Source of the DNA: a virus
IMG/VR virus record: IMGVR_UViG_3300034418_004553
DNA: 62,650 bases
Reading direction: 5' to 3' (one strand)
A model generated the notes under the pieces. It searched no databases. It was given only the letters and a program-made list of their open reading frames with translations, and was not told the origin of the DNA. Both the position numbers and the translations under genes were made by a program. Of the stretch, positions 1 through 30,300 are shown piece by piece; positions within the stretch are counted from its first letter, which is position 1; every line of letters begins with the position of its first letter.

Positions 1-127
1 CTGGCTGTATCAGGTCTCTGCATATATCGTTAGCCATCATCTTGTCAACCATTACCTCAATACTGTCTACTTCGTGTTGTAGTAGACATAACTCACCACC
101 AGATATTTCTTTATACTTTTTAGTGTT
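1..127. repeat. Terminal direct repeat, exact copy of 62524..62650 (circular-closure overlap)
   Basis: Bases 1..127 (ctggctgtatcaggtctctg...ctttttagtgtt) read identically at 62524..62650. Confidence 0.95.
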
Positions 128-355
128 TCGAGTTGATGATTCGATAATCTTAAATGACTTTAACTTGTCAGGCTCTAATATAGCAGTGTGGAAGTAACCA
201 CCGACTAAGAAGTTAGGGTTGTTAGGTGTTTTGTCGTACAATGACATAGGATTCTTTAGTAACTTACTAATATGAGAGTTACTTAAGAACTGATTACCAA
301 ACTCACCGTAGTAGTCTTCATCATTACGTAGTCGATCGATTATTTCTTTACTCAT
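1..355 (-). CDS. PD-(D/E)XK (RecB/Cas4-like) exonuclease, N-terminal part. Same gene as 62144..62650 once the circle is closed (735 nt, 244 aa)
   Basis: Manual minus-strand translation from ATG 355..353: MSKEIIDRLRNDEDYYGEFGNQFLSNSHISKLLKNPMSLYDKTPNNPNFLVGGYFHTAILEPDKLKSFKIIESSTRNTKKYKEISGGELCLLQHEVDSIEVMVDKMMAND. It is open to base 1 and in frame with the 62144..62575 ORF. ATGA overlap with the erf stop. Confidence 0.7.
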   Translation of the reverse strand, partial: MSKEIIDRLRNDEDYYGEFGNQFLSNSHISKLLKNPMSLYDKTPNNPNFLVGGYFHTAILEPDKLKSFKIIESSTRNTKKYKEISGGELCLLQHEVDSIEVMVDKMMANDICRDLIQP

Positions 356-885
356 AGTTTACTTAGTTCTTCCTCTTGTTTTGAAGTAAGCTTGTACTTC
401 GTTTTAATTGCATTAACGTTTCCTCCATTAGTTATGTATTCTTTTGCTTTGTTAAACTGCTCGACAGTTATTCTAGGCTTTACGTCAGCTTTACCGTGCG
501 TGTTAGTTGCATCTGCGTCTTCAGTATCATCTATTAAGAATAGATTACCTAACGCGTACTTCTTACCGTAAGTACTTGCAGCACCAAACTGTTGAGACGT
601 CTGCATACCTTTTTGAGATAGGTCGACACCTACAACCGCAGTGGCTGTTACCTGGTTTTCACCGTCCGAGAAAATTGCTGTGGACTCGAGCATTGGCACA
701 GGCTCTGTGGCGATGATCTGTTCTTTAACTACTACAGAAACATCGAGCTCGAGGAGAAACGGTTTTACCGCTTCTAATATGTCTTCCGCTTTACGGAAAT
801 AATATTTGCCAAACGAATTATAGCTAGACTTTTTTGCCTTTAGCTTAGTTTGGACTTGAGCTAATTTGTTATTTAGTTCTTTCAT
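352..885 (-). CDS. erf: ERF-family single-strand annealing protein
   Basis: 177 aa. N-terminal coiled segment, then the GAASTYGKKYALGNLFLIDD block typical of the ERF/P22-Erf core. Adjacent to the exonuclease gene. Confidence 0.7.
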   Translation of the reverse strand: MKELNNKLAQVQTKLKAKKSSYNSFGKYYFRKAEDILEAVKPFLLELDVSVVVKEQIIATEPVPMLESTAIFSDGENQVTATAVVGVDLSQKGMQTSQQFGAASTYGKKYALGNLFLIDDTEDADATNTHGKADVKPRITVEQFNKAKEYITNGGNVNAIKTKYKLTSKQEEELSKL

Positions 886-945
886 TTTGGTATATGGTTT
901 ACATATATATAATTACAGGTTTTAACGTGGATTTACACGAGTAAA

Positions 946-1701
946 CTATAGAAAGTCAACCACTTGCGAGTAATCTACGTTTTCAACCAACTTGTCTATT
1001 GCCTGCTTTTTTAGCTGCGATATACGCACATAAGCACTGTCACCTTTTATGTTTAACTTCTCTGCTATTTGTTTAGCTGAAAGCTTATCACAGTTAAGGC
1101 CAAAGCTGTATTTAATAACATCTGCTTCACGGCTAGATAAATGCTGACTTAGCAAGTTAAGTAAGTACGAACACAAGAGCTCAGGGTTGTATCTTTTGAT
1201 CTTGTCTGGTACTTCAAAACCTATGTTAGCATCATCTAGCATTTTATCTAAGCTTACAAACACAGAGTTGAAAAACATTTCAAGTTGACTCTTATCTGCA
1301 TCGTTCTTACGTATCTCATTAAGCTTGTGCTCGGGTATACGCATCGTGCCTCGATTGATATCTACGGCTCTACGTATACCACCTTTGATACGTTTAGATA
1401 AAAATGACTTGAGCCTTTGCTCTGGATCACTAGCTTCGTATATAGTCTCCCAGTTAATTTTACCAACAGCGATAACTAAGTTCTTGTTACCTTCTTGTAT
1501 CAAGTCATTAATAGTCATTACGCCACTAGCCTGCTGCGTGGTAGAAAACTTACGCGCTAAGTTCTCTGCTAACGGCATGAACAGTAAGATCAGCTCATCG
1601 CGAGTCATTTCGTCCCAAGGCCTACAGAAGTCTGTTCGCCTTGTAAGCTGCTTTATATCTTCTTTGTATCGGATATAGTTTTGTATGTTATAACACTTCA
1701 T
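946..1701 (-). CDS. Sigma-70 family RNA polymerase sigma factor (regions 2-4)
   Basis: DLIQEGNKNLVIAVGKI...RIPEHKLNEI parallels sigma70 DLIQEGNIGLMKAVDKF...RIPVHM (regions 2.2-2.4/3.0). C-terminal LSSREADVIKYSFGL...SAKQIAEKLNI...YVRISQLKKQAIDKL matches region 4 HTH. Confidence 0.85.
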   Translation of the reverse strand: MKCYNIQNYIRYKEDIKQLTRRTDFCRPWDEMTRDELILLFMPLAENLARKFSTTQQASGVMTINDLIQEGNKNLVIAVGKINWETIYEASDPEQRLKSFLSKRIKGGIRRAVDINRGTMRIPEHKLNEIRKNDADKSQLEMFFNSVFVSLDKMLDDANIGFEVPDKIKRYNPELLCSYLLNLLSQHLSSREADVIKYSFGLNCDKLSAKQIAEKLNIKGDSAYVRISQLKKQAIDKLVENVDYSQVVDFL

Positions 1702-1773
1702 TGTCTTCTTTATTGTTTAGATGTGTTAACACGCAAGCTGTTGCACTTAGTGTTATAAAAATTATTAGTAAAT

Positions 1774-2397
1774 TCATAGTTGTTTATTTAAAAGTTCTTT
1801 TTCGCGCTTTAAGTCTTCACACATATGACGATGCACAGTACGAGATGATACACCCAGAACCTCAGAGACGCGTTTTATCGTGATCTTTTGGCCTAAGTCA
1901 TGTATATCTATCATAGCTTGATAAACGTCGTCAGGATGCGTCTTATTTGATCTGCCAATCAACTGACCTACGATACTGAGCTTTTCAGCTTTACTTAGCC
2001 CGCATCCACGTTTAAAAATAACTTTACGCAGTTTATTTTTAGGTGGTCTATCAAGATCAGACATGTATACATCATATACTATTTTGTCTATCATGTTATC
2101 ATTTATAGAGAAGCTAATAAAACCATTTGACTTGTTGCATATTGCATAAGACATTTGTTTAAACTCGTCAGGACCTTTTTCTGGGTTTAAGTACCACAGA
2201 ACAAGCAAGTGCCAATAAAGGCTCTTGTACGTGTTTATTTTAGCTTCGCTTCTAAACAGATCATAATACTCATGCGTACCGTCTTCAAAGAACATCCACT
2301 TATCTGTTTGTACAGTTGGAATGTCGTTAATAGGTAGTCTGGAGGTGATTACGTTATTGCGCCACAACATGTTATAATTACGATCAAACTGTGACAT
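1774..2397 (-). CDS. Hypothetical protein with C-terminal helix-turn-helix
   Basis: 207 aa. C-terminal ITIKRVSEVLGVSSRTVHRHM resembles an HTH. No other motif recognised. Confidence 0.55.
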   Translation of the reverse strand: MSQFDRNYNMLWRNNVITSRLPINDIPTVQTDKWMFFEDGTHEYYDLFRSEAKINTYKSLYWHLLVLWYLNPEKGPDEFKQMSYAICNKSNGFISFSINDNMIDKIVYDVYMSDLDRPPKNKLRKVIFKRGCGLSKAEKLSIVGQLIGRSNKTHPDDVYQAMIDIHDLGQKITIKRVSEVLGVSSRTVHRHMCEDLKREKELLNKQL

Positions 2398-2459
2398 AAG
2401 CCTGTTACTTAGTACTATTAGGGGCTATTGTCACACTGACCGGTTTAAGGGTCGCAAGA

Positions 2460-2478
2460 ATAATTCTTTTAGAATTAT
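2460..2478. promoter_or_regulatory. Perfect 8-bp inverted repeat ATAATTCT-TTT-AGAATTAT (hairpin or operator)
   Basis: Read directly in the 107-nt gap between two minus-strand genes. Confidence 0.3.
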
Positions 2479-2504
2479 CATAATTGGGTATTTTATTAAA
2501 TTCC

Positions 2505-3002
2505 TCAATACGTTTCTTTAGGTCTTTCTTCATATGTTTTTTCGGTTTTTAGGTTTGCGATTATTCTTTTTGCGCCTATGTAATAGTTCCAGTAAGCTTG
2601 CAGGCTACAATCGTCTTTATACTCATCTGGCATACACTGTGGAGGTTGTTCAAATGGCTCATGCGGTATATCAATAGGTGCTGCCCGTAAATGACCGCAC
2701 TTAGTTATAGACAAATGCGTTCTACCATATCTACGTTTGTATTCAGCACCTAATGCCATCATGTGCTCATACAGCCAATCATAATGTAAAGAGTTTTCTC
2801 TTACCCATATTGTTGAAGGGTGGTTGATATGCGCTTTTTTGTAAGGTACATTAACAAAGTCACCATCAACATCTCTATCACCTAGTATATGGTGGGCCGT
2901 GCAAAGCATCTGAGCAGACTCTAAGATCATCTTTACGACGTGCTTATTGTACTGATAATCAGCGGCTTTACGCGGATCTTTATGTAGATAAAATATATTC
3001 AT
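2505..3002 (-). CDS. Conserved-looking hypothetical protein (N-terminus MNIFYLHKDPRKAADYQYNKHVVKMILESAQML)
   Basis: 165-aa ORF abutting the next ORF start. The N-terminal motif looks like a recurrent phage family whose function I cannot name. Confidence 0.6.
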   Translation of the reverse strand: MNIFYLHKDPRKAADYQYNKHVVKMILESAQMLCTAHHILGDRDVDGDFVNVPYKKAHINHPSTIWVRENSLHYDWLYEHMMALGAEYKRRYGRTHLSITKCGHLRAAPIDIPHEPFEQPPQCMPDEYKDDCSLQAYWNYYIGAKRIIANLKTEKTYEERPKETY

Positions 3003-3184
3003 TAGTCTTCTATAGATGTTATACCATTACCTTTAGGACTGTTCATCAACTGCGAGTGCCTATATCTTTCATTACGAAGTTGCATCTCAAGCACTTTAAT
3101 TGTTTCGCTTTGTGTTTCAACTAATCGCTCGTATGCCTCTAATTTATTTTGTAACTCATCCATTGCTCTCTTCAAATTCTTCAA
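3002..3184 (-). CDS. Small coiled-coil protein
   Basis: 60 aa, heptad-like LQNKLEAYERLVETQSETIKVLEMQL. Packed tightly against its neighbours. Confidence 0.5.
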   Translation of the reverse strand: MKNLKRAMDELQNKLEAYERLVETQSETIKVLEMQLRNERYRHSQLMNSPKGNGITSIED

Positions 3185-3365
3185 TTACGTTTTCAATTTG
3201 TTGTGCACGGCTTGCTATTGACTCTGCAACGTCTGCAAAGCCACGTAATGCGCTGATCTCGTACTCTGATAATTCTTCTGCGTCTAAACCATCTTCAAGC
3301 GCGTATAGACAGTCGCGCATGTCCGCTAATGTATTTTCAAAGCGGCAGTAACTCATATTTCCCAT
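3156..3365 (-). CDS. Small acidic protein (YCRFENT motif)
   Basis: 69 aa, strongly acidic C-terminal half (IENVIEEFEESNG). Confidence 0.55.
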   Translation of the reverse strand: MGNMSYCRFENTLADMRDCLYALEDGLDAEELSEYEISALRGFADVAESIASRAQQIENVIEEFEESNG

Positions 3366-3366
3366 T

Positions 3367-3477
3367 TTAATATCTTTTTCTTTTGTTTCTAATTTGTTCT
3401 AATTTATCTAATAGCTTTATAGCTATGTCTACACTGATCTCGTCAGCGTAATATAGGTCGTATATTAATCTTCTCAT
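3367..3477 (-). CDS. Small hypothetical protein (36 aa, below the ORF-track cutoff)
   Basis: Manual translation MRRLIYDLYYADEISVDIAIKLLDKLEQIRNKRKRY. ATGA overlap with the ligase stop. Fills the gap exactly. Confidence 0.4.
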   Translation of the reverse strand: MRRLIYDLYYADEISVDIAIKLLDKLEQIRNKRKRY

Positions 3478-4319
3478 TCGTAGTCGCGTATACATTTAAA
3501 TAGTGGGTGACGGTAGCTACCAGCTTTGGTACGCTCGAAGTATGTGAACGTAGCTGTCTTGCCAACCCAGCCTTGCATAGCTTTAAAGTTGTCTTGTAAG
3601 TACTTGAACTTATCCATGACAGGCATACCAAACTCTACGCCATCAGCATCACGAGCTAGGAACTTACCGATCGTACCTACACGTTTGCCTTTACCTTCAA
3701 CCCAGCCAATAATTTCTGCCTCAGTGTCGTGGAAGTCTTTGAACTTACGTAGGCTGTGTGAACGCTTTTCGTGATACTCAGTATTAAGACGCAGTATTGA
3801 GCCTTCGTAACCTTGAGCAAGATTTCCATGGTGTATAATTTTAGCTTGATCTTCGTTAAACACATCTAACGTTGGTACACGTTTGATGCAGCGGTTTTGC
3901 ATAAGGTTGTATTGCAGCCACTCGCTACGCTTAGCAAACGGTAAGTGCATGCCTTTACCGATTAGATCGTAGCAGTGGAACTGCACAAGTCTAGCTGATT
4001 CAAGCCTGTACTCATCTGTTGGTTTAGTCTTACGCACGCAAGAGATGATCTTTTCGAAGTCATCTTTCAAGTCGTGGTTGTATAGCTCGCCATCGAGTAC
4101 AACTTGCGGGTTAAACTTGAAGAAAGGTTCAAGGTTAAACAAGATGTGATCGATGTTAAGCCATTGCTTACCTGTACGTGACCACGCGGTTACATTGCCG
4201 TTGTCACACTGTATGACACAGCGGACGCCGTCAAGCTTAGGCTGTAAGAATACGCCTTCGCTGTAGTCAATTGGTTTATCGCTGACAGGATATGCCAGCA
4301 TTGGTTTATGTCTTATCAT
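3474..4319 (-). CDS. lig: ATP-dependent DNA ligase
   Basis: Adenylation motif I KLDGVRC, motif IV-like EGSILR, motif V-like LRKFK. 281 aa, the size of minimal phage ligases. Confidence 0.85.
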   Translation of the reverse strand: MIRHKPMLAYPVSDKPIDYSEGVFLQPKLDGVRCVIQCDNGNVTAWSRTGKQWLNIDHILFNLEPFFKFNPQVVLDGELYNHDLKDDFEKIISCVRKTKPTDEYRLESARLVQFHCYDLIGKGMHLPFAKRSEWLQYNLMQNRCIKRVPTLDVFNEDQAKIIHHGNLAQGYEGSILRLNTEYHEKRSHSLRKFKDFHDTEAEIIGWVEGKGKRVGTIGKFLARDADGVEFGMPVMDKFKYLQDNFKAMQGWVGKTATFTYFERTKAGSYRHPLFKCIRDYE

Positions 4320-4357
4320 ATTATTATTATCTGTTAGTATTCGTATTTAGTTCGTAC
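4320..4357 (-). promoter_or_regulatory. Early-region repeat motif, copy a
   Basis: Minus strand GTACGAACTAAATACGAATACTAACAGATAATAATAAT immediately before the ligase ATG. The embedded TAA is the stop of ORF 4347..4766. Confidence 0.6.
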
Positions 4358-4766
4358 ATGTGTCTCGCTCTGTTTCGCTACAGTCGCAGTTGTCGCATAA
4401 AAACTCTTCAGTCTCGACCTGTTCAGGTGCGTACTTCTTCAGTAACATGTCTGGTGTACCTACAAATACACATCGCTCTTCTTCCCACGACGCTACTTTG
4501 AATACACTGATCCATGGCTCGGATTTGCCATGACACTGCCACACATAGTACATATACTCTATGTCGCAGTGTACTATATCAAGAGCTTCGACTTCCCAGC
4601 CTTCGACTTTACGATACTTAGTAAATGATTCGGCGATCTCTACGCCTAATCCTTCAGGATAACCATCCCAGTGATTATAGAACTGTGCGTGCCATCGATC
4701 TGGGTGTTTGTCAAAAGGTACACCCTCTTCGCGCGTTGCGAACCTTATTGTTGCTCTTGTTGCCAT
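4347..4766 (-). CDS. Hypothetical protein
   Basis: 139-aa ORF ending ...DTCTN-stop inside motif copy a. Confidence 0.6.
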   Translation of the reverse strand: MATRATIRFATREEGVPFDKHPDRWHAQFYNHWDGYPEGLGVEIAESFTKYRKVEGWEVEALDIVHCDIEYMYYVWQCHGKSEPWISVFKVASWEEERCVFVGTPDMLLKKYAPEQVETEEFLCDNCDCSETERDTCTN

Positions 4767-4845
4767 TATTCTTTAAATTTTCTATTTGATTCTATTATTT
4801 GTTCTAGTATTATGTAACCTAGTAAGCCCGCGTATAAGTATTCCA

Positions 4846-5127
4846 TTAGTCTAGTAGTATCATGTATGCGTTAGGATTCTTGATTAGAAACCAGTCCTTG
4901 CCTCTAGTAATGACATCAATGCAGTCATCTAGATCGAACACTGGTATGTTCATAACCATTGCTATTTCAGCACCTTTAATTAAATCATACATACTCAGCT
5001 CAGCAGCATCTAATAATGCTGTTTCACCAGTTAATGGGTTGCGCACTTCGTCACCTAGTTCGTATACGTCACCGTCGAACCAACTCGGTAACATTTCTTC
5101 TGCTTGTTGTTTGTTATTCATCTTCAA
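4846..5127 (-). CDS. Hypothetical protein
   Basis: 93-aa ORF, overlaps the next ORF by 14 nt. Confidence 0.55.
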   Translation of the reverse strand: MKMNNKQQAEEMLPSWFDGDVYELGDEVRNPLTGETALLDAAELSMYDLIKGAEIAMVMNIPVFDLDDCIDVITRGKDWFLIKNPNAYMILLD

Positions 5128-5350
5128 TAATATTTTCTCCTGTCATTAATGTGCTACCGTTGATACTACCAAAATCGACTCCGCCGTAGATTATAAGGTT
5201 ATTGATTTCGCTTATTTTAAGCTCGCTCCAGAATGATGTAGAATCGAGAACTTTAATAGTGCTAGTAACCGTAAATGTGTAATCATCTTGGTTTGCAAGC
5301 AAAGTATCACGTATGTCTTTGTTTAGTCTTTGGTATAATGTTCGTCTCAT
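5114..5350 (-). CDS. Hypothetical protein
   Basis: 78-aa ORF directly preceded by motif copy b. Confidence 0.55.
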   Translation of the reverse strand: MRRTLYQRLNKDIRDTLLANQDDYTFTVTSTIKVLDSTSFWSELKISEINNLIIYGGVDFGSINGSTLMTGENIIEDE

Positions 5351-5388
5351 ATTGATATTATCCGTTAGTATTCGTATTTAGTTTGTAA
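5351..5388 (-). promoter_or_regulatory. Early-region repeat motif, copy b
   Basis: Minus strand TTACAAACTAAATACGAATACTAACGGATAATATCAAT then ATG. Overlaps the 3' acceptor strand of minihelix 1. Confidence 0.6.
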
Positions 5389-5426
5389 GAGCGCAGGAAT
5401 CGAACCTGCACTAACCGTTACTCTTA
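5385..5426 (-). ncRNA. tRNA-like minihelix 1 (7-bp acceptor stem + 10-nt GG linker + T-arm; no D or anticodon arm)
   Basis: Minus strand TAAGAGT-AACGGTTAGT-GCAGG-TTCGATT-CCTGC-GCTCTTA-C. Canonical GGTTCGATTCC T-loop. The 5' acceptor strand lies only 10 nt upstream of the T-stem. Confidence 0.6.
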
Positions 5427-5698
5427 TATAAAGCGAAGACCGAGACATGTCATGTAACCTCGTCAGGTTACCTCGATCAACGCGTAGCGTGTATAGCAAC
5501 ACACCCGTTACATACATAAGCTGTTCACTTTGGGCTCGCTTCTGAACGAAGTTATATCGCCTCCCCAGCTCTATGTATGCCTTGCACCGTCGTGCTTATA
5601 TGTGCAATATGATGACTAATCTGCGAGCAATGTCTTAAGCTTCTCGCGGCGGACCATTACGGTGCTTCCACCAGTCTTGCACATTTAACTAGCTATTG
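5427..5698 (-). ncRNA. ORF-free, hairpin-dense segment upstream of minihelix 1 (candidate structured RNA)
   Basis: No ORF of 60 aa or more on either strand, and visibly more GC-rich than the flanks. Perfect hairpin GTAACCT-GACG-AGGTTAC (5454..5472), ~9-bp pairing of 5511..5520 with 5571..5580, and alternative TGTGCAA/TTGCACA/GTGCAA pairings. Confidence 0.4.
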
Positions 5699-6097
5699 TC
5701 AGACAAATTTGCCATCAATCTTACCTGAGTCGTCTTCGTTGACAAAATCTTCTTCAACTATGTTGAACATATCTTGTAACACGTTATAGATATCCGACTC
5801 AGATATTCCTATATTACTAAAATCAATATTCTCTATTACTACCGTATTACCGTAGTCCATACCAAATTCTACATCTAGATCGTGAGTGTCGACGTTGTGT
5901 ACTATTTCAGTGAATATATCTTGTAGTGCGTCTACTAAATCATCTGCCACTTTCGACTGGATTTTAGGTCTACCTGCATTAGCTAGTTCGTTTACTGCTG
6001 TGTTTAGCTCGCTTTGAGCTTGTCTTAATTCAGAGTCTTTAGTATCTCTGTTGGCTTGTAGTGCTTCCACTTTTGCCTGTAATTGTTCTTTATTCAT
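5699..6097 (-). CDS. Acidic coiled-coil protein
   Basis: 132 aa. Coiled N-terminal half, C-terminal half very D/E-rich (DTHDLDVEFGMDYG...EEDFVNEDDSG). Confidence 0.6.
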   Translation of the reverse strand: MNKEQLQAKVEALQANRDTKDSELRQAQSELNTAVNELANAGRPKIQSKVADDLVDALQDIFTEIVHNVDTHDLDVEFGMDYGNTVVIENIDFSNIGISESDIYNVLQDMFNIVEEDFVNEDDSGKIDGKFV

Positions 6098-6104
6098 GAT
6101 TATA

Positions 6105-6314
6105 TTATTTTAGCATTGTACCATAACCACGACGCCTAGTGAGCTTAGCGATACGATCGGCATCACTGCGTGACATGATTTGTATTGAGTTGCCTGTCTT
6201 GTGGTTGATAAGTGGTGCACAGCCATAACGCTCAACAGTAGAACAGTTGACACACACTTTGAAACCAAGGCGCAGACGGCCTTCAGGGATTATACTATTG
6301 CATTTGCATTTCAT
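6105..6314 (-). CDS. DksA/TraR-like C4 zinc-finger protein
   Basis: 69 aa. CKC-x(17)-CVNC arrangement with IPEGRLRLGFKVCVNC, similar to phage TraR-type zinc fingers. Confidence 0.5.
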   Translation of the reverse strand: MKCKCNSIIPEGRLRLGFKVCVNCSTVERYGCAPLINHKTGNSIQIMSRSDADRIAKLTRRRGYGTMLK

Positions 6315-6352
6315 ATATATATTATCGAAAAGTAATCGTATTTAGTTTGTAA
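6315..6352 (-). promoter_or_regulatory. Early-region repeat motif, copy c
   Basis: Minus strand TTACAAACTAAATACGATTACTTTTCGATAATATATAT then ATG. The embedded TAA is the stop of ORF 6342..6683 (…VHFTN-stop). Confidence 0.6.
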
Positions 6353-6683
6353 AATGTACATCGCGAGTACAGTCTTGAATATGCTCTACAACTTCATCTG
6401 CTTGATTAAAGTCAAGAGTGATATTACCACCTTCTTCAGTCACCGCATAAGTATTAAAGTACTCATTATCTGGGTCGAAGTAATCACAGTTAGGTATGTA
6501 GATTTGAAACTCAAACCGCTGAACTTCGTCGTCGTACCAAGTCGGTCTTTTGATTACACGTGTACAAGTTACTGATATAGAGGCAGTTGCATCATTGCCA
6601 TAGCTTGTATTTTCATATGAGTAACCTGCTTCGGTTAGCTTCATTGCTAGCGCATCATACGCTCTTTGTTCATAACTTGTCAT
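6342..6683 (-). CDS. Hypothetical protein (start trimmed to ATG 6683)
   Basis: The track ORF 6342..6761 has a hydrophobic N-terminal extension overlapping the upstream gene. Internal start MTSYEQRAY leaves only a 14-nt overlap. Confidence 0.55.
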   Translation of the reverse strand: MTSYEQRAYDALAMKLTEAGYSYENTSYGNDATASISVTCTRVIKRPTWYDDEVQRFEFQIYIPNCDYFDPDNEYFNTYAVTEEGGNITLDFNQADEVVEHIQDCTRDVHFTN

Positions 6684-6921
6684 AGTAGTTTTCTTGAAAT
6701 AAGTTAATAATATGCCTACCAGATCGAGTATGGAAACCATAGCTATGAGTAAACATGCCACTGATTGGCTTGTTTTCGAGTACTAATTGTAGTACTTCCC
6801 ATGGTGTACACTCGATCTCATAAGCGGTTGCTTTTGCTGCGTCTGTTAATGTTGCACAGCAGTGTCTTGGTTGAGAGTCTAACTCTTCAACGATATAGTT
6901 TTCCACTTCTTGTTCTGTCAT
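6670..6921 (-). CDS. Hypothetical protein
   Basis: 83-aa ORF in the tightly packed series. Confidence 0.55.
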   Translation of the reverse strand: MTEQEVENYIVEELDSQPRHCCATLTDAAKATAYEIECTPWEVLQLVLENKPISGMFTHSYGFHTRSGRHIINLFQENYYDKL

Positions 6922-6925
6922 AGTA

Positions 6926-7126
6926 TTAAATTAAAATTAAGTCATCAATATAGTCAGGTTCTAGGCCGAACTCACAGGATACGTAGTCTTCTACATCCCA
7001 TACTGTTAGCTCGCCTGACGCTAGACCTTGCATTACATAGTCTCTTGCTTCAGATACTATGTGCTCTGCTGTTTCAGGTGATATACTATCGCGCTTGATT
7101 AGCACGTCTTTGATTCTATATTTCAT
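6926..7126 (-). CDS. Small acidic protein
   Basis: 66 aa, D/E-rich. Confidence 0.55.
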   Translation of the reverse strand: MKYRIKDVLIKRDSISPETAEHIVSEARDYVMQGLASGELTVWDVEDYVSCEFGLEPDYIDDLILI

Positions 7127-7256
7127 TTGCTACATAATTTTCTGCTTCTTCAAGCGTTGTACATTGAGGTACACTGTCATAAGTGCCGTCAGTATACCAT
7201 ATTTTGTTAAGTTCTGGAGCGTAACCGTGTCGCTCTAATCCTACTATTTTTTTCAT
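7116..7256 (-). CDS. Small hypothetical protein (46 aa, below the track cutoff)
   Basis: Manual translation MKKIVGLERHGYAPELNKIWYTDGTYDSVPQCTTLEEAENYVANEI. ATGA overlap with the upstream stop. Confidence 0.4.
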   Translation of the reverse strand: MKKIVGLERHGYAPELNKIWYTDGTYDSVPQCTTLEEAENYVANEI

Positions 7257-7471
7257 TCTTCTAATTCTATTTGTAGTGTTTCACATAACCACTCGTCTTC
7301 GAACCATAGAATATCATTAAGTTGAGTTTCTGTTAATCCATCAGGATACAAATCTTCTATTAGATATTCAAAGTGCTCAGACTTGTTGTTTTCTATAATC
7401 AGTCGCTTTGTTTCTTTTGCACCTGCCCAAGCCTCAAAGCGATTTAGTTTTAAGTGTTGTATTACTTTCAT
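7253..7471 (-). CDS. Small acidic protein
   Basis: 72 aa ending ...WFEDEWLCETLQIELEE. Confidence 0.55.
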   Translation of the reverse strand: MKVIQHLKLNRFEAWAGAKETKRLIIENNKSEHFEYLIEDLYPDGLTETQLNDILWFEDEWLCETLQIELEE

Positions 7472-7483
7472 TTTACTGCTTGA

Positions 7484-7633
7484 TTATTCATGACACATCC
7501 ACTCTATTGAGCCAAGGCTGTAGCCTTTGCCGATTAAGAAGCCTTCAAGCGCTTCGTGAACTTCTGGCATTTCTGGTGGTAGCACATACGTGTCTACCTC
7601 TGCTCTTTCAAAATTTAATACTGTTATTTTCAT
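7484..7633 (-). CDS. Small hypothetical protein (49 aa)
   Basis: Manual translation MKITVLNFERAEVDTYVLPPEMPEVHEALEGFLIGKGYSLGSIEWMCHE. TAATG junction with the upstream ORF. Confidence 0.4.
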   Translation of the reverse strand: MKITVLNFERAEVDTYVLPPEMPEVHEALEGFLIGKGYSLGSIEWMCHE

Positions 7634-7806
7634 TATTTCTCTAATATATAGGTGAAACCTTTATAACCGAACCAGTGGGAAACACCATCTGACTCACCAT
7701 AGTTAATACAACCGAAATTATTCGGTAAATCTCCAATACAGTATGGCTTATAAACTGCCATTCCTATCTGTATTTTATTATTTTTTAAGAATTTAATTGT
7801 TTTCAT
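7633..7806 (-). CDS. Small hypothetical protein (57 aa)
   Basis: Manual translation MKTIKFLKNNKIQIGMAVYKPYCIGDLPNNFGCINYGESDGVSHWFGYKGFTYILEK. Preceded directly by motif copy d. Confidence 0.45.
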   Translation of the reverse strand: MKTIKFLKNNKIQIGMAVYKPYCIGDLPNNFGCINYGESDGVSHWFGYKGFTYILEK

Positions 7807-7844
7807 ATTATTATTATCTATTGTGTTCCGTATTTAGTTTGTTA
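7807..7844 (-). promoter_or_regulatory. Early-region repeat motif, copy d
   Basis: Minus strand TAACAAACTAAATACGGAACACAATAGATAATAATAAT then ATG. The embedded TAA stops ORF 7834..7962 (…DLTN-stop). Confidence 0.6.
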
Positions 7845-7962
7845 AATCTGACGCTACATTAACAAGTAGCATTATCATAGCGATACCAAATGTACCAATG
7901 TTCAAAGCAAGTACTGCTTTCATAGTAATCTCTGCGATTACAAAGTGATTGAATTTTCTCAT
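7834..7962 (-). CDS. Small membrane protein (42 aa, one TM)
   Basis: Manual translation MRKFNHFVIAEITMKAVLALNIGTFGIAMIMLLVNVASDLTN. Confidence 0.4.
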   Translation of the reverse strand: MRKFNHFVIAEITMKAVLALNIGTFGIAMIMLLVNVASDLTN

Positions 7963-7968
7963 ATTATA

Positions 7969-8283
7969 TTATTTTAGTAGTTTCATAAGTGCATTGACAA
8001 CGTCATTAGCGTTTGAAGTGTAATCAACGCCTAAGGATAGTGCATTGCTGTAACAGTCATCGCACTCGTCTTGCCACTCGACAAACTGCCAATAGCCAAA
8101 CATAGTTGATTCAAGTGCTGTGCTACGCACTGAGTAGTCACTGATGTTGTAAGTGATACTGATTTCACTGTCACCAATCAGAGTTAAATCATGATTTGGT
8201 AAGTGATGCTTGAGTAATTGATGTATAGCGTTACGCTGTAGTTTTACTTGAGCTCGTAGCTCTTTATTGAATATCATTGCCAT
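7969..8283 (-). CDS. Hypothetical protein
   Basis: 104-aa ORF directly preceded by motif copy e. Confidence 0.55.
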   Translation of the reverse strand: MAMIFNKELRAQVKLQRNAIHQLLKHHLPNHDLTLIGDSEISITYNISDYSVRSTALESTMFGYWQFVEWQDECDDCYSNALSLGVDYTSNANDVVNALMKLLK

Positions 8284-8321
8284 ATTATTATTATCTATAA
8301 GTTATCGTATTTTGTTTGTAG
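8284..8321 (-). promoter_or_regulatory. Early-region repeat motif, copy e (TAA mutated to AAA)
   Basis: Minus strand CTACAAACAAAATACGATAACTTATAGATAATAATAAT then ATG. The upstream ORF reads through the motif (…TTNKIR-stop). Confidence 0.55.
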
Positions 8322-8436
8322 TATTAGGTCTCACCATTGCCACCTCTTCAAACTCTTCACGAGTGATAAGATTCATCATTAGTGCTAAGTAGTACTTAGT
8401 TACATCTCGCTTAGTTATTTTGTTAATTACTTTCAT
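8302..8436 (-). CDS. Small hypothetical protein (44 aa)
   Basis: Manual translation MKVINKITKRDVTKYYLALMMNLITREEFEEVAMVRPNTTNKIR. Confidence 0.4.
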   Translation of the reverse strand: MKVINKITKRDVTKYYLALMMNLITREEFEEVAMVRPNTTNKIR

Positions 8437-8451
8437 ATTATTTTTAGTTTA

Positions 8452-8495
8452 GTAGTAGCTTGCGAATCGAACGCAACTCGGCACCATGACTACTA
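8452..8495 (-). ncRNA. tRNA-like minihelix 2 (same architecture as 5385..5426)
   Basis: Minus strand TAGTAGT-CATGGTGCCGAG-TTGCG-TTCGATT-CGCAA-GCTACTA-C. Both stems differ in sequence from copy 1 but stay complementary. Same T-loop, U7-G66 wobble, discriminator C and trailing AAACTAAA. Confidence 0.6.
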
Positions 8496-8560
8496 TGTAA
8501 GTGTTCATATTTGATATACCAGTAAACACTAAACTAACTGGACTATATGTTGAAGAGTAG

Positions 8561-8815
8561 TTATGACACTACTGCGTCAGTTTCACGCAACACTTTTGGT
8601 ATATTGTTACTAGCAGTGTACGACTTATACTTTGCCCAACATGGCATTGCTTCTAAAGCTGACTGCATAAGAGTGAATGCTTTGTCGTGATTGTAAGTAA
8701 CTGTGTTACCATTCTTGAATGTTACTGTTATTGTAGCGCCTTTGCCTACAAGTGATTGACGTAAAACGAAACGCTTGCTAGTTAGAGTGTTAGTCACTGC
8801 ATTTGAATTTGACAT
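8561..8815 (-). CDS. Hypothetical protein
   Basis: 84-aa ORF. Confidence 0.55.
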   Translation of the reverse strand: MSNSNAVTNTLTSKRFVLRQSLVGKGATITVTFKNGNTVTYNHDKAFTLMQSALEAMPCWAKYKSYTASNNIPKVLRETDAVVS

Positions 8816-8842
8816 GTTATATATATTTTTAAGTTATTAGTT

Positions 8843-8880
8843 ATATTTATTATCTGTTGCTTGTCGTATTTAGTTTGTAA
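8843..8880 (-). promoter_or_regulatory. Early-region repeat motif, copy f
   Basis: Minus strand TTACAAACTAAATACGACAAGCAACAGATAATAAATAT. Here the ATG (8815) lies a further ~27 nt downstream. Confidence 0.5.
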
Positions 8881-8958
8881 AAGTAGTAAGTTTGTTTATG
8901 TATTAGTTTTAGTAGAGTAGTACTCCGCCGCGCTCGCAAGTGAACGACATAAATTATT

Positions 8959-9066
8959 TTACAACAACTCACTGAGTGAACAAGTTAGCATTATGTAAAG
9001 AGTAAATACTGTAGCGAAAAGAATTGTATAAATTATTTCTTGAAGTAGTAATTTTAGAATACGCAT
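8959..9066 (-). CDS. Small hydrophobic protein (35 aa), first ORF of the leftward arm
   Basis: Manual translation MRILKLLLQEIIYTILFATVFTLYIMLTCSLSELL. Confidence 0.35.
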   Translation of the reverse strand: MRILKLLLQEIIYTILFATVFTLYIMLTCSLSELL

Positions 9067-9089
9067 GTAGAATATTTTTGTTTTGTTAT

Positions 9090-9127
9090 ATATATATTAT
9101 CGAAGCGTTGTCGTACTTACTATGCAA
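9090..9127 (-). promoter_or_regulatory. Early-region repeat motif, copy g (degenerate, outermost)
   Basis: Minus strand TTGCATAGTAAGTACGACAACGCTTCGATAATATATAT. It keeps the TACGA and CGATAAT blocks and sits at the head of the leftward arm. Confidence 0.4.
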
Positions 9128-9189
9128 AAATCGAAACTGAGGCAAAGCCAAAGGCGGGGCCCGGTAAACTATATGCACTTTTCCTGGCA

Positions 9190-9213
9190 GGGGGAGGGGC
9201 CGGGGGAGGGGGG
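9190..9213 (+). other. Canonical G-quadruplex motif G5-A-G4-CC-G5-A-G6
   Basis: Read directly: gggggaggggccgggggagggggg. Four G-tracts of 4 or more with loops of 1, 2 and 1 nt, inside a GC-rich island (about 9140..9230) of an AT-rich genome. Confidence 0.8.
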
Positions 9214-9353
9214 CTACATTTCCCTCCAATATTTATAATATCCGAAAAAAGTATGACACTAGGTAGTTAATAGATATTAGTAACAGGCATATGTCACACT
9301 TTTTAAATAGCGAAGTAAGTGTGTAACTATAAAGAGTATAAAGAAGAAAAGCA

Positions 9354-9746
9354 ATGGCAACTACAACAGCACAAGTAATTATATCAAGCACGAACTTACT
9401 TTCTAGTTCACTTAGCATTAATAACACACGTACATTAAAGCAGTCTGACGGAACAGATGTGGATGAGTCTACAGGTCTAGCAGCAACTAAGAACGGTGGT
9501 ACTAGTATATATACTTTGTATTTAGCGTCAGCTTACGGTAACAACGGTGCCGCGAAAGTGTACATTAAGAATAACGATACTACGTTTGCTAACTTTGTTA
9601 CGATCACGATAGGCTCACAAACTCTTGGTAGATTATACGGCGGTGATTGGGCGCTTATACCTTGGGATGCTACAAACGATTTCAAAGCTACAAACAACAA
9701 CAGCGGTACTACTATTGAGCACATGCTGTTACATGAAGGAGCATAA
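9354..9746 (+). CDS. Hypothetical protein, first ORF of the late arm
   Basis: 130-aa ORF, T/S/N/G-rich. Confidence 0.6.
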   Translation: MATTTAQVIISSTNLLSSSLSINNTRTLKQSDGTDVDESTGLAATKNGGTSIYTLYLASAYGNNGAAKVYIKNNDTTFANFVTITIGSQTLGRLYGGDWALIPWDATNDFKATNNNSGTTIEHMLLHEGA

Positions 9747-27352: not shown

Positions 27353-30300
27353 ATGGCAGAGTTGAGAAAAGACTTCTCAAAAGCCCGCATGAACAAGGAC
27401 ATGGACGAACGTCTTGTCCCGCCGGGCGAGTATAGAGACGCAAACAATATACAGATATCTACGTCTGACGGTTCTGACATAGGAACTGTTCAGTCGTTGT
27501 TTAGTAATAAAAGCAGAGCTCTTGTTAACTATAGCAGCACTGGAGCTGCTCAAAACCTATACGGCGGATCAACTGTTAAACATACTATCGTTGGTTCTGT
27601 AGCAGATGCCAGCAAAGATAAGATTTACTATTTAGTTTCTGGTGGAGATCAATATGACTCTTCATCATATAATAGCACACGTAAAGATTACATAGTAGAA
27701 TATGACACTGTAAAAGAAACTAACAAATATGTGTTTGTAGATATATTCGGTGTAGATACAACTGTGTCCGGCACGCCAGGATCAAACACAACTTTCCATA
27801 TAGCATTAGGAGCTGGTAGCTCTATTTACAATATAGGTGTAAGAGTAGGTATGAATATAACTAGTACCGCTACTACGCCTAATACTATTTTAACTAGTGA
27901 TGTGATCGTGACAAATGTAGAGTACGACACAAGTGGTGGCACTAACAAGTGGAAGATTACTACCAACAAAGCTCACGGTCTATCTGACACGAACGCTTTA
28001 ACGTTTGAGTCAAAAAGAGTTTTAAACTTTTCTAAGTTTACGCTGATAACTGGTATTAATATTTTAGATGATTTTATATACTGGACAGATAATGAGCACG
28101 AGCCTAAGAAGATTAGCATCAGCAGAAGCATTGCTGGAACAGGTGGAACAGTAGAGTTAAATACAGAAGCGACTCAAACATTTAACGGAGACACTGACAA
28201 CTTCCACACTAGACTAGTAAAAACTAACAACGCTTACGCTAACGTAGAAAACATACTTTCTGTTGCGGTTAACAACGCGGGTGCGAGACCTGTATATGTA
28301 GACGAAAGTCACGTCACTGTTATTAGAAAATCACCAACTCAACCGTTAGAGCTAGACATGTTCAGAACTGGTGTTGAGCGTATAAAATCTAATGGCGATG
28401 TAAACCCGACAGAGGGCTTTGTGTCAAATGTATCATTAAGCTTTGGTAACGTAACGTCAGGTAATCAGAACTACACTAACGCAGCAAGCATTACATTTGA
28501 TGATCAGGTTGATTTTAGAGATGATGATATACTACTTATCACGCTACAAGACAACTTAGATCAAGACCTACCTGAAGAAGATTATTTTGATATTAGAGTT
28601 AGAGTTTTAAATTCACCTATAACTAATGCGAATAATATATCTTTCGGTCCTTTTATTGTAGAGTTTTTAGGTGCTAGTGTAGATGGTCAAGCTTATTTAA
28701 ACGGAACATCTACAGACACGTTAAGCGTTAAGCTCGATACTAAAGATGTTATATTTAAACACAAGTTCCCTAGATTTTCTTATAGATACAAGTATCAAGA
28801 TGGTGAGTACTCAACGTTCGCGCCGTTTAGTGAGGTAGCGTTTTTAACTGATGACTACGAGTATCAACCAAAGAAAGGTTATAACTTTGGCATGTCTAAT
28901 CAGCTTAGAGGTTTAAAGATATCTGGCTTCGTAGGTAATGAAGATATCATGCCTGAAGATGTGGTTGAGATCGATATACTGTACAAAGAAACAAACAACC
29001 CAACTGTATACTCTGTTAAAACTATTAAGCCTACAGACACAGAGTGGCCTTCAGCAAACGGTATTACAGATGGAGACAGAGGCGAGTTGTTAATAAACAC
29101 AGATCTTATACATGCTGTAGTTCCATCTAATCAGTTACTCAGACCCTACGATAACGTACCAAGGAAAGCGTTAGCGCAGGAAATTACAGCTAATAGATTA
29201 ATATATGGTAACTATGTTCAGAACTACACCGTAGACGGAAGCACGAGCTTAAACGTAGGTTGCGAAAGAACTACGTACGCGGATGGAGAGTTTAACTACG
29301 CCCCACCTTCGGTTAAGTCCATACGTAAATACCAAGTTGGTGTAGTATTTAGCGATGAGTACGGTAGAGAAACTCCAGTATTGAGCTCGAAGTCTTCTTC
29401 AATATCTATACCTATAAACTACTCTGATACTAGAAATAGAATATCTGTATCATTTGATCCTAAAAAAGCTAACGTACCTAGTTGGGCAAAATACTTCTCG
29501 TATTACATTAAAGAGCCGTCAGCGGAGTATTATACTATGGCTAATGACAGATGGTATAACGCTGATGACGGAAATATATGGTTATCGTTTCCTTCTGCTG
29601 ATAGAAATAAAATACAAGAAGACGACACTATTATACTAAAGAAAGCAGCAGGCCAAGATACTGCTGTAAAAATAGACAACAGATATAAAGTATTAGCTAT
29701 ATCAAACGAAGCTCCAGACTTCATAAAAAGAACTAGAAAAGTTCTAGGTTCAGTAACAGGTACTTTAGGTGTTATCGGTGAAGCGAGTGGTAACTTGTAT
29801 CCTCTACCTAACTCTAACAAGATACAGATTTCTGGTGGTAACTTTATTACAGCGTTCGGAGATAAGCTACACGTGTTAACTCCTGATGAACTATATTTAA
29901 AGGTTTCTTTTGGTAACAATCAGTCTGAAGAGTACGAAGTATCTAGATTAATAAAGGACGGCGCTGTAACTGAAAATAATCCAGAAGGTAGTGGCGATTT
30001 TATACTAACTACAACCAAAGTCTTCGGCCAAGATATGGCGTTTACGTCGCCAACAGAAAGTGCTGCAGACGCTGTTGACACGATACGTATAGAGTTAATA
30101 GAATACGAAGTTCAAAACAAGCCCGAGTTTGACGGTAGATTTTTTGTTAAGATTTATAAAGACTCTTTAGTACAGCAATATGTTTTAATAGATCAAAATC
30201 AAGATTTAGTACCTACTTTATCTTGGGAGTTAAGATATTTAAACAACAACGGGTACAACAACGTCGCGGCAGACGGGTCTCTTGTACCTCCAACAATTGA

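Follow-up and report, generated by a model that had tools for sequence, protein, structure and literature searches.

Introduction

In plant mitochondria, sequences resembling transfer RNA (tRNA) and known as t-elements direct the RNase P and RNase Z cuts that make mRNA ends, and it was there that the class was defined (PMC1920247). Here we describe a tRNA-like element reduced to the top half of a tRNA, that is the acceptor stem and the T arm, which is present in two copies in IMG/VR virus record IMGVR_UViG_3300034418_004553. The whole 62,650-nt stretch of this record is called the window below, and the two copies are called copy 1 and copy 2 (Table 1). Since tRNA-like processing signals in mRNAs are already known from organelles, archaea and mammals, the element does not open a new category.

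An acceptor/T-arm minihelix is the minimal architecture accepted by bacterial RNase P in vitro. RNase P reads the 12-bp coaxial helix and the elbow formed by T loop and D loop, and RNase Z reads the acceptor/T arm of precursors without an encoded CCA. Cuts by RNase P in phage RNAs and polycistronic mRNAs are established as well (4.5S RNA, the C4 RNA of P1/P7, intercistronic cuts in operons), but these natural substrates are not conserved mimics of a tRNA top half with the GG of a D loop. In MALAT1 and MEN-beta a triple-helical expression and nuclear retention element is followed by a tRNA-like substrate of RNase P, the MALAT1-associated small cytoplasmic RNA (mascRNA). In the promoter-early stem-loop (PeSL) cassettes of T4-type phages, a structured element adjoins a repeated early promoter, and such pairs mark the borders between small early genes that are shuffled. 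To our knowledge, no family of top-half RNase P substrates has been described in phage early operons, and full-text searches of the literature turned up no account of elements of this kind in flavobacterial or crAss-like phages.

Sequence and fold of the two copies

Read on the minus strand (8495..8452), copy 2 is TAGTAGT-CATGGTGCCGAG-TTGCG-TTCGATT-CGCAA-GCTACTA-C, with complementary stems as described in a first-pass annotation of the same DNA. Copy 1 (5426..5385) is TAAGAGT-AACGGTTAGT-GCAGG-TTCGATT-CCTGC-GCTCTTA-C. In both copies seven of seven acceptor pairs and five of five T-stem pairs can form, including a U7-G66 wobble. A 7-bp acceptor stem stacked on a 5-bp T stem, a T loop of the form TTCRANY and a G53-C61 pair are thus features shared with tRNA, while the cloverleaf of a canonical tRNA, with its D arm and anticodon arm, is absent, and only 10-12 nt separate the acceptor and T stems in either copy. 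ARAGORN found no tRNA gene in the window, and a search of the window against Rfam, RF00005 included, gave no match at the gathering score and none at E<=10.

The copies differ from each other in two acceptor pairs and four T-stem pairs, and every change is compensatory. The first-pass annotation had the acceptor count right, but had all five T-stem pairs changed; the pair closing the loop, G53-C61, is in fact common to both copies. It had further listed the TTCGATT loop, U7-G66, the discriminator C, the GG of the linker and the 3' trailer AAACTAAA as conserved parts of the minihelix. All but the last can be retained. The trailer belongs to a separate repeated motif, of which it forms the 5' part and which occurs in the window also without a minihelix; in copy 2 the trailer is shifted by one extra T.

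Chance occurrence and a host tRNA origin were both examined. A strict descriptor of the element matched the window twice, against a mean of 0.073 matches per shuffle, and none of 300 dinucleotide shuffles gave two matches; in 107.7 kb of unrelated AT-rich flavobacterial phage DNA it found none. The scan of shuffled and unrelated AT-rich phage DNA for equally good matches, proposed in the annotation as a check on its own claim, was thereby carried out and gave no such matches at a similar frequency. When a covariance model built from the two copies was run unfiltered over the whole window, only copies 2 and 1 were returned (59 and 55 bits), the next best score being 12.7. The pair of elements is confirmed to be more than a chance occurrence.

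In 185,579 species genomes no exact match to either 3' half was found, in keeping with the earlier statement that the copies are not accidental fragments of one host tRNA. Genome matches to looser patterns were not tRNA genes: the T loop plus GCTACTAC (T loop and 3' acceptor strand) gave 118 chance matches in bacterial genomes, with the T stem present in three and the 5' acceptor strand in none. Identity to the 3' part of a bacterial tRNA, as expected of a phage attachment site (attP) or of a captured 3' half of a host tRNA, was not found, and an attP core is disfavoured because the 5' acceptor strand, which such a core would lack, is present too. Judged by its sequence, the element is not a host tRNA fragment.

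Table 1. Positions of the element, its parts and adjoining features in the window
Feature	Position	Strand	Basis or remark
tRNA-like top-half element, copy 2	8452..8495	minus	sequence; covariance model, 59 bits; covariation
Copy 2, acceptor strands	5' TAGTAGT 8495-8489; 3' GCTACTA 8459-8453	minus	
Copy 2, linker CATGGTGCCGAG, 12 nt	8488-8477	minus	D-loop-like GG at 8485-8484
Copy 2, T stem	8476-8472 / 8464-8460	minus	
Copy 2, T loop TTCGATT	8471-8465	minus	
Copy 2, discriminator C	8452	minus	
tRNA-like top-half element, copy 1	5385..5426	minus	sequence; covariance model, 55 bits
Conserved H-type pseudoknot	8500..8541	minus	covariation, 16 loci and 28 further contexts
Pseudoknot stem S1	CCAGT 8541-8537 with ACTGG 8523-8519	minus	
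Pseudoknot stem S2	AGTGTT 8530-8525 with AACACT 8505-8500	minus	
Pseudoknot loops	L1 TAGTTT 8536-8531; L2 T 8524; A-rich L3 TATATCAAATATG 8518-8506	minus	
Gene X, conserved, 84 aa	8561..8815	minus	stop codon, then pseudoknot, in all relatives examined
Promoter-like motif, six full copies	8880-8849, 8321-8290, 7844-7813, 6352-6321, 5388-5357, 4357-4326	minus	
Motif copy at copy 1	5357..5388	minus	followed by 6 nt and the ATG of ORF 5114..5350
A-rich leader TAAACTAAAAATAAT, 15 nt, discriminator to ATG	8437..8451	minus	sequence; comparison with L010
44-aa open reading frame (MKVINKITKRDV...), directly downstream of copy 2	8302..8436	minus	list of open reading frames; homologues

Recurrence and covariation in related phages

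Relatives of the window were collected as 80 related loci (designated by L numbers) by a GroEL-based scan of IMG/VR, with GroEL identities of 70-90% and full contigs of 61-71 kb. The covariance-model scan of the genome and of related contigs, suggested in the annotation, gave 28 matches in these loci, and all 28 lie on the strand equivalent to the minus strand of the window (the sense strand). Perfect T arms with a TTCGANN loop occur 46 times in sense and twice in antisense orientation, against about 18 in shuffles with both strands summed. Roughly three quarters of the loci with at least 4 kb of upstream sequence carry one or more such elements or tRNAs, and there are at least two different copies per genome.

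The stems vary widely among relatives. The 5' acceptor strand may be TAGTAGT, AAGTAGT, CTGTAGT, CGATAGT, AAGTGTG, AAGTATA, TAGCCTG, TAGCATG or another sequence, each with a matching 3' strand, and the T stems vary likewise; within sublineages a given acceptor can persist, TAGTAGT / GCTACTA being kept in six or more contigs. What the relatives have in common is an invariant GTTCGA.TC with the G53-C61 pair, an NNNGGT at a fixed offset past the acceptor strand and a 3' end in ...AC. To limit circularity, 29 distinct elements were gathered by sequence anchors only (the pseudoknot loop upstream, the first NNNGG and the first TTCGA). In this set 87.4% of the cells were paired, compared with 31-51% when the partners were slid, and both sides had changed in 111 cells compared with 31.6 in shuffles. 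The covariation score was 0.848 against 0.207, a value of 0.848 was reached in none of 500 shuffles, and G53-C61 was invariant in all 29. The annotation had attributed the pattern to selection on structure rather than on sequence, and these figures bear it out on a larger set. The G-U pairs of the element would be A-C mismatches if read on the complementary strand; the structure selected is therefore that of the sense strand, which points to RNA.

Kinship with phage tRNA genes can be followed at the same loci. In L002 and L010, the closest relatives, the copy-1 locus has the same acceptor (TAAGAGT/ACTCTTA), the same AACGGTT and the same T arm, and a 60-67-nt irregular hairpin occupies the place of the anticodon arm; at the copy-2 locus L002 has a 74-nt version. 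The versions of close relatives at these loci measure 74-99 nt. Between close relatives the middle of the element is lost or enlarged freely, and both stems remain. Other relatives have genuine tRNA genes in this block and on this strand (Arg-TCT at five loci, Ala-TGC and Asp-GTC), and these genes are followed by the same repeated motif or directly by an open reading frame (ORF). The linker (AATGGTTAAT, AACGGTTAGT) resembles the D loop of a tRNA lacking the stem, as can be seen by comparison with the D loop of the Asp tRNA of L076. The discriminator is a near-universal C in the elements and an A in the true phage tRNAs, and neither the elements nor the tRNAs are followed by an encoded CCA.

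An origin from phage tRNA genes is preferred to a minihelix formed de novo because tRNA-sized versions exist at the same loci and true tRNAs in equivalent slots. The minihelix is likely to be derived from phage tRNA genes, as the shortest form of a family; in the simplest history suggested by the comparison, such genes would repeatedly have lost the D stem and anticodon arm, with the top half and the elbow contact kept by selection.

Two other observations from the T-arm searches may be recorded. A further class of T arms ends in ...CTTGGGC-A (L037 at 3898, L039 at 799 and L067 at 1372, minus strand of those loci); no 5' partner strand could be located for it within 95 nt, and it may belong to a larger structured RNA. 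A hairpin GGTAACCU-GACG-AGGUUAC with the tip CUGACGAG is found at 5454-5472 (minus strand) of the window, in the 270-nt non-coding region 5427-5698 upstream of copy 1, and the same tip occurs just 5' of the T arm in another tRNA-like class ("class B") in L026, L037, L042, L065, L068 and L076. A hammerhead ribozyme was considered for CUGACGAG and rejected, as it is a simple hairpin tip (NNCU-GACG-AGNN) with no GAAA or stem III and with the wrong topology.

The upstream pseudoknot and gene X

Next to the element on its upstream side the first-pass annotation had placed a spacer of about 65 nt, rich in hairpins (8496..8560). The position is as given, whereas the nature of the spacer has to be revised, since it holds a conserved H-type pseudoknot that ends 4 nt (TACA, 8499-8496) before copy 2. 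Both stems covary over 16 loci: S1 appears as CCAG/CTGG, CGAG/CTCG or GTCG/CGAC, and S2 is wholly different between relatives. When pseudoknot and minihelix were taken together in eight aligned sequences, 94% of the cells were paired (26-52% with slid partners) and eight pairs had changed on both sides. A second subtype, with the loop TTATAAAAAATGYG, has the same topology; the two subtypes were analysed separately, because a joint MAFFT alignment misaligned them. A scan of IMG/VR with the loop 17-mer gave 28 further genuine pseudoknot contexts. In all contexts the pseudoknot starts 9-25 nt past the stop codon of the same 84-aa gene, here called gene X, and it is usually, although not always, followed by the tRNA-like element.

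Other roles for the pseudoknot were considered. No Rfam family, riboswitch and cis-regulatory families included, matched it; a preQ1-type or other riboswitch was rejected on this ground and because loop and stem lengths differ. A read-through or frameshift pseudoknot does not fit, as its distance from the stop codon is variable (9-25 nt) and no conserved ORF lies beyond. A small ORF starting from an ATG in loop 3 was likewise dismissed, since it has 19 codons in the window and stops after 3-5 in relatives.

Downstream reading frames and the promoter-like motif

Copy 2 lies directly upstream of the ATG of ORF 8302..8436, as the annotation had said, with a 15-nt leader in between. That copies precede ORF starts, which it had suggested checking, proved to be general: ORFs of at least 30 aa begin 0-2 nt past the discriminator in seven loci (L003, L006/7, L038, L042, L019, L065 and L073) and 13-16 nt past it in about 12, the window included. 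As these distances leave no room for a promoter, such ORFs must be transcribed through the element. No Shine-Dalgarno sequence is visible upstream of these ORFs. The GC-rich hairpin and U tract of an intrinsic terminator are not present at the element, whose trailer is A-rich (TAAACTAAAAAT), and a terminator scan gave no terminator-like site on the minus strand of the block from 1 to 9700.

The trailer AAACTAAA forms the upstream part of a 32-nt tripartite motif, TTACAAACTA-AATACGA-N9-GATAAT, and four of the six full copies of this motif in the window have no adjoining minihelix. In the window and the 80 loci it was found 149 times in sense and once in antisense orientation, always upstream of an ORF. 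The gap from GATAAT to ATG is exactly 6 nt in five of the six window copies, and 6 nt is also the commonest spacing between motif and ATG across all loci (27 of 118), the others ranging from 8 to 49 nt. At copy 1 the motif overlaps the 3' end of the element (TTA-C), and this overlap partly explains the conserved 3' end (TAC). The motif may be a promoter specific to this phage group, possibly yielding leaderless mRNAs. It is unlike the sigma-A consensus of Bacteroidota. A T7-like promoter was considered for the shared AATACGA and rejected, because the 9 nt before GATAAT are unconserved and no single-subunit RNA polymerase was found. Identity with the "tripartite" middle promoters of Cellulophaga phage phi14:2 was rejected too: a transcription study of that phage mapped these as host-type TTG...TAnnTTTG, which looks different, and such host-type sites are almost absent from the window.

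The leader downstream of copy 2 resembles the motif without its central 17 nt (TAC-T-AAACTAAA / AATAAT-ATG). In L010 the same minihelix is followed by an intact motif and an orthologue of window gene 7969..8283. Homologues of the 44-aa ORF follow the element in L026, L038 and L068; L010 lacks this gene, and its motif is unbroken. By this comparison the 44-aa gene resembles a cassette that entered at the motif, and copies of the motif seem to be places where small early genes are exchanged. An exact inverted repeat is also present on the minus strand, between TTAGTTTAGT (8528-8537, in L1/S2 of the pseudoknot) and ACTAAACTAA (8444-8453, discriminator and trailer). Minimum free energy (MFE) folding pairs these two segments as an alternative to pseudoknot and acceptor stem, an arrangement partly conserved in L010 and L026.

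Genomic context

The window belongs to an uncultured podophage of Bacteroidota, in a marine Flavobacteriia group known from metagenomes. It encodes a crAss-type muzzle-protein domain, TerL, portal, GroEL, ribonucleotide reductase, primase-helicase, ligase and ERF, together with a sigma-factor-like protein and a protein with a sorting domain of the type IX secretion system. The nearest cultured relatives by TerL are phages of Flavobacterium, Cellulophaga, Tenacibaculum and Maribacter, with at most 46% identity, and none of 50,697 phage records matched the window at the DNA level. The block from 1 to about 9700 has its genes, most of them small ORFs, on the minus strand, and it contains both elements in sense orientation. 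The sigma-factor-like protein (Sigma70_r4, PHROG 351; 946-1701, minus strand) is adjacent to a weakly helix-turn-helix-like protein (1774-2397, minus strand), and the genes of both share the block with those bearing the motif. Two giant ORFs lie on the plus strand, one of 3081 aa (37535-46780) and one of 2617 aa (27353-35206) with a C-terminal domain of the crAss muzzle protein. The 3081-aa ORF cannot be called a virion RNA polymerase, since it has no Pfam or PHROG match and no DFDxD motif; no RNA polymerase domain could be detected in it.

Phage phi14:2 (L081, NC_021806.1), for which RNA-seq data exist, has a possible long-form tRNA-like element at about 1761-1857 (plus strand), in the non-coding gap between g002 and g003. 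It reads CACGGGT-ATCAGTGTTGGTTAA...long hairpin...GAAGG-TTCGAAT-CCTTC-ACCAGTG-G, with six of seven acceptor pairs, and is not called by ARAGORN. The same phage has a transfer-messenger RNA (tmRNA) at 4031-4502 (plus strand), called by ARAGORN with the tag GSSVQKLAMVA* and matched end to end by RF00023 (46 bits, gathering score 47, E = 9e-16). This tmRNA occupies the gap between g005 and g006, in the early region; from this gap an early "long non-coding RNA", both abundant and stable, is reported in the phi14:2 transcription study.

Discussion

The element has a conserved structure, it follows rules of strand and position, and it is related to and interchangeable with phage tRNA genes. We favour, as a tentative reading that may well be correct but falls somewhat short of probable, that it is a t-element-like processing signal punctuating a polycistronic early mRNA. 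It combines the hallmarks of t-elements, namely a non-canonical tRNA-like fold with a conserved T-arm motif, in sense orientation and within what would be an mRNA precursor. It cannot decode, since the D stem and anticodon arm are lost, and the parts that remain appear to be just those read by RNase P and RNase Z; the GG of the linker could dock on the T loop and so form the elbow of a tRNA. Its transcription as RNA, its cleavage, the enzymes responsible and the function of the pseudoknot are inferred. No enzyme for RNA processing was detected in the window, and the cutting would thus fall to host enzymes. Host RNase P would cut 5' of T8495 and host RNase Z after C8452, and both cuts together would excise a minihelix of roughly 44 nt. 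The mRNA of gene X would be left ending four nt past the pseudoknot, which could block 3' exonucleases, and the 44-aa ORF would be freed on an mRNA whose A-rich leader is very short, at 15 nt in the window and 0-2 nt in several relatives.

Several observations weigh against this proposal. The motif follows copy 1 immediately, so that the gene downstream of it could be expressed without cleavage. That RNase P and RNase Z of Flavobacteriia accept a bulged linker of 10-12 nt is an assumption carried over from in-vitro work on minihelices with other bacteria. In L016, L215 and L267 the pseudoknot is present without the element, which means that they need not work together as a single device. The bases of pair 1:72 are mismatched in 20 of the 29 elements, although canonical in both window copies, and single-sequence MFE folding of the whole spacer does not favour the structure (z = -0.66). 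In cultured phages the element was not found by blastn with the spacer, by tblastn with gene X or by scans of elemo, Calle_2 and phi14:2, apart from the weak long-form candidate in phi14:2.

Alternatively, the minihelix, excised or made independently, might itself be the product, a stable tRNA-like small RNA acting in trans, perhaps with a CCA tail; it could serve as a decoy or sponge for a host factor that binds the acceptor/T arm or the elbow, such as a tRNA-targeting defence toxin, a modification enzyme or the CCA-adding enzyme. The structural conservation would apply equally, and the different copies within one genome, the acceptor sequence kept within sublineages and the discriminator C in place of the A of true phage tRNAs would suit such a role. 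We nevertheless regard it as unlikely, since it leaves unexplained both the tight coupling to the next ORF start and the fixed place after gene X and pseudoknot. The stems moreover vary so freely among relatives that no acceptor identity is kept (there is no G3-U70 and no G-1), and the AC at the 3' end is largely due to the overlapping promoter-like motif. Pseudoknot and tRNA-like fold could instead form an uncleaved cis-regulatory structure that steers translation initiation or stability for the ORFs on either side; its binding partner could be, for instance, a ribosomal component, a protein or a ligand. The distance of 15 nt to the ATG, a host clade that does not use Shine-Dalgarno initiation, the conserved pseudoknot loops (TAGTT, TAAATCAAATATG), which suggest a specific partner, and the alternative pairing of TTAGTTTAGT with the trailer all speak for it. 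That pairing is specific to the window and not conserved in relatives beyond the partial cases, though, and the known riboswitch and leader families gave no match. The same slots are filled by genuine tRNAs, whose processing is certain, and where the ATG comes right at the discriminator (L003, L006/7), only a cut in the RNA would keep it from being buried against a stable helix. We hold an uncleaved structure to be quite unlikely.

A function at the DNA level, as a cruciform or hairpin promoter for a phage RNA polymerase (as for the virion polymerase of N4) or as a hotspot for cassette recombination, seems very improbable. N4-type hairpin promoters have a stem of 5-7 bp and a 3-nt loop and work on the template DNA strand. 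Here the loop has 7 nt, and the G-T wobbles, which only the sense strand tolerates, would turn into A-C mismatches in the template strand. In tRNAs the conserved GG and the TTCGATT loop belong to RNA tertiary contacts, most copies of the motif have no element, and the 3081-aa ORF shows neither DFDxD nor a detectable polymerase domain. The idea draws on the way the elements abut or overlap a highly repeated promoter-like motif, on gene content that differs exactly at the junctions (the 44-aa gene is present in the window and not in L010), on the crAss-like structural genes of the group such as the muzzle protein, and on the fact that the early promoters of crAss-type virion RNA polymerases are unknown. 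Least probable, and disfavoured, is that the elements are non-functional relics of decaying phage tRNA genes. True tRNAs at equivalent positions, highly unstable central regions and the frequent loss of pair 1:72 would all be expected of relics. Neutral decay, however, would not keep 11 of 12 pairs by compensatory double changes between contigs with GroEL 70-90% identical, nor hold the GG and the T loop invariant, nor repeatedly remove the same arms at two loci.

Read as an mRNA-processing signal, the element finds its nearest counterparts in t-elements and mitochondrial tRNA punctuation, which likewise place non-canonical tRNA-like folds with a T arm of the GGTTCRANYCC type in mRNAs; t-elements adjoin coding regions and swap with true tRNAs as RNase P and RNase Z signals for 5' and 3' ends of mRNAs (PMC1920247). 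Short or absent leaders downstream are a further likeness to mitochondrial punctuation. The phage element differs from t-elements in belonging to a bacteriophage of Bacteroidota, in being far more reduced (42-44 nt, with no D stem or anticodon arm) and in its pairing with a conserved upstream pseudoknot, and its cleavage is a prediction. The MALAT1 module has the same order of parts, a compact A-rich structure, a few nt and a tRNA-like RNase P substrate, and a cut in the phage RNA would similarly leave the upstream RNA ending just past a protective structure. MALAT1 and NEAT1 are reported to depend on tRNA processing. The mascRNA is, however, a full cloverleaf mimic, and its upstream partner is a U-A-U triple helix with a genomic A tract and not an H-type pseudoknot; MALAT1 is eukaryotic and nuclear, and the likeness is one of logic, with no homology.

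The tRNA-like domain of tmRNA also has an acceptor stem and T arm, a D-loop analogue without D stem and pseudoknots nearby, but the element lacks G3-U70, A73 and an mRNA-like domain or tag ORF between the acceptor strands, and its pseudoknot lies outside the acceptor stem. A degenerate tmRNA was rejected because position 3:70 is G-C, the linker has only 12 nt, and ARAGORN and Rfam (RF00023) are negative, the same tools detecting the tmRNA of phi14:2. The PeSL cassettes resemble this locus in that the 44-aa gene appears to be inserted within a copy of the motif; their structured element is a simple terminator-like hairpin and not a tRNA mimic. Neither the element nor the pseudoknot corresponds to a family in Rfam.

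A broader proposal is that a group of marine Bacteroidota phages turned its own tRNA genes into anticodon-less punctuation, with downstream genes left leaderless or nearly so and the upstream mRNA capped at its 3' end by an A-rich pseudoknot, as a counterpart of both mitochondrial punctuation and the MALAT1 module; it is possible, although doubtful as a whole. The element offers precise predicted cleavage coordinates, and two unannotated RNA motifs, the top-half element and the pseudoknot, are added together with a promoter-like motif to what is known of these widespread uncultured phages of marine Flavobacteriia. If the processing reading is true, a bacteriophage would possess a conserved tRNA-derived mRNA-processing signal, and a route to the expression of internal genes would be shown in a host phylum without Shine-Dalgarno initiation. 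Phage tRNA genes would then have been kept for processing after decoding was lost, which bears on why phages carry tRNAs.

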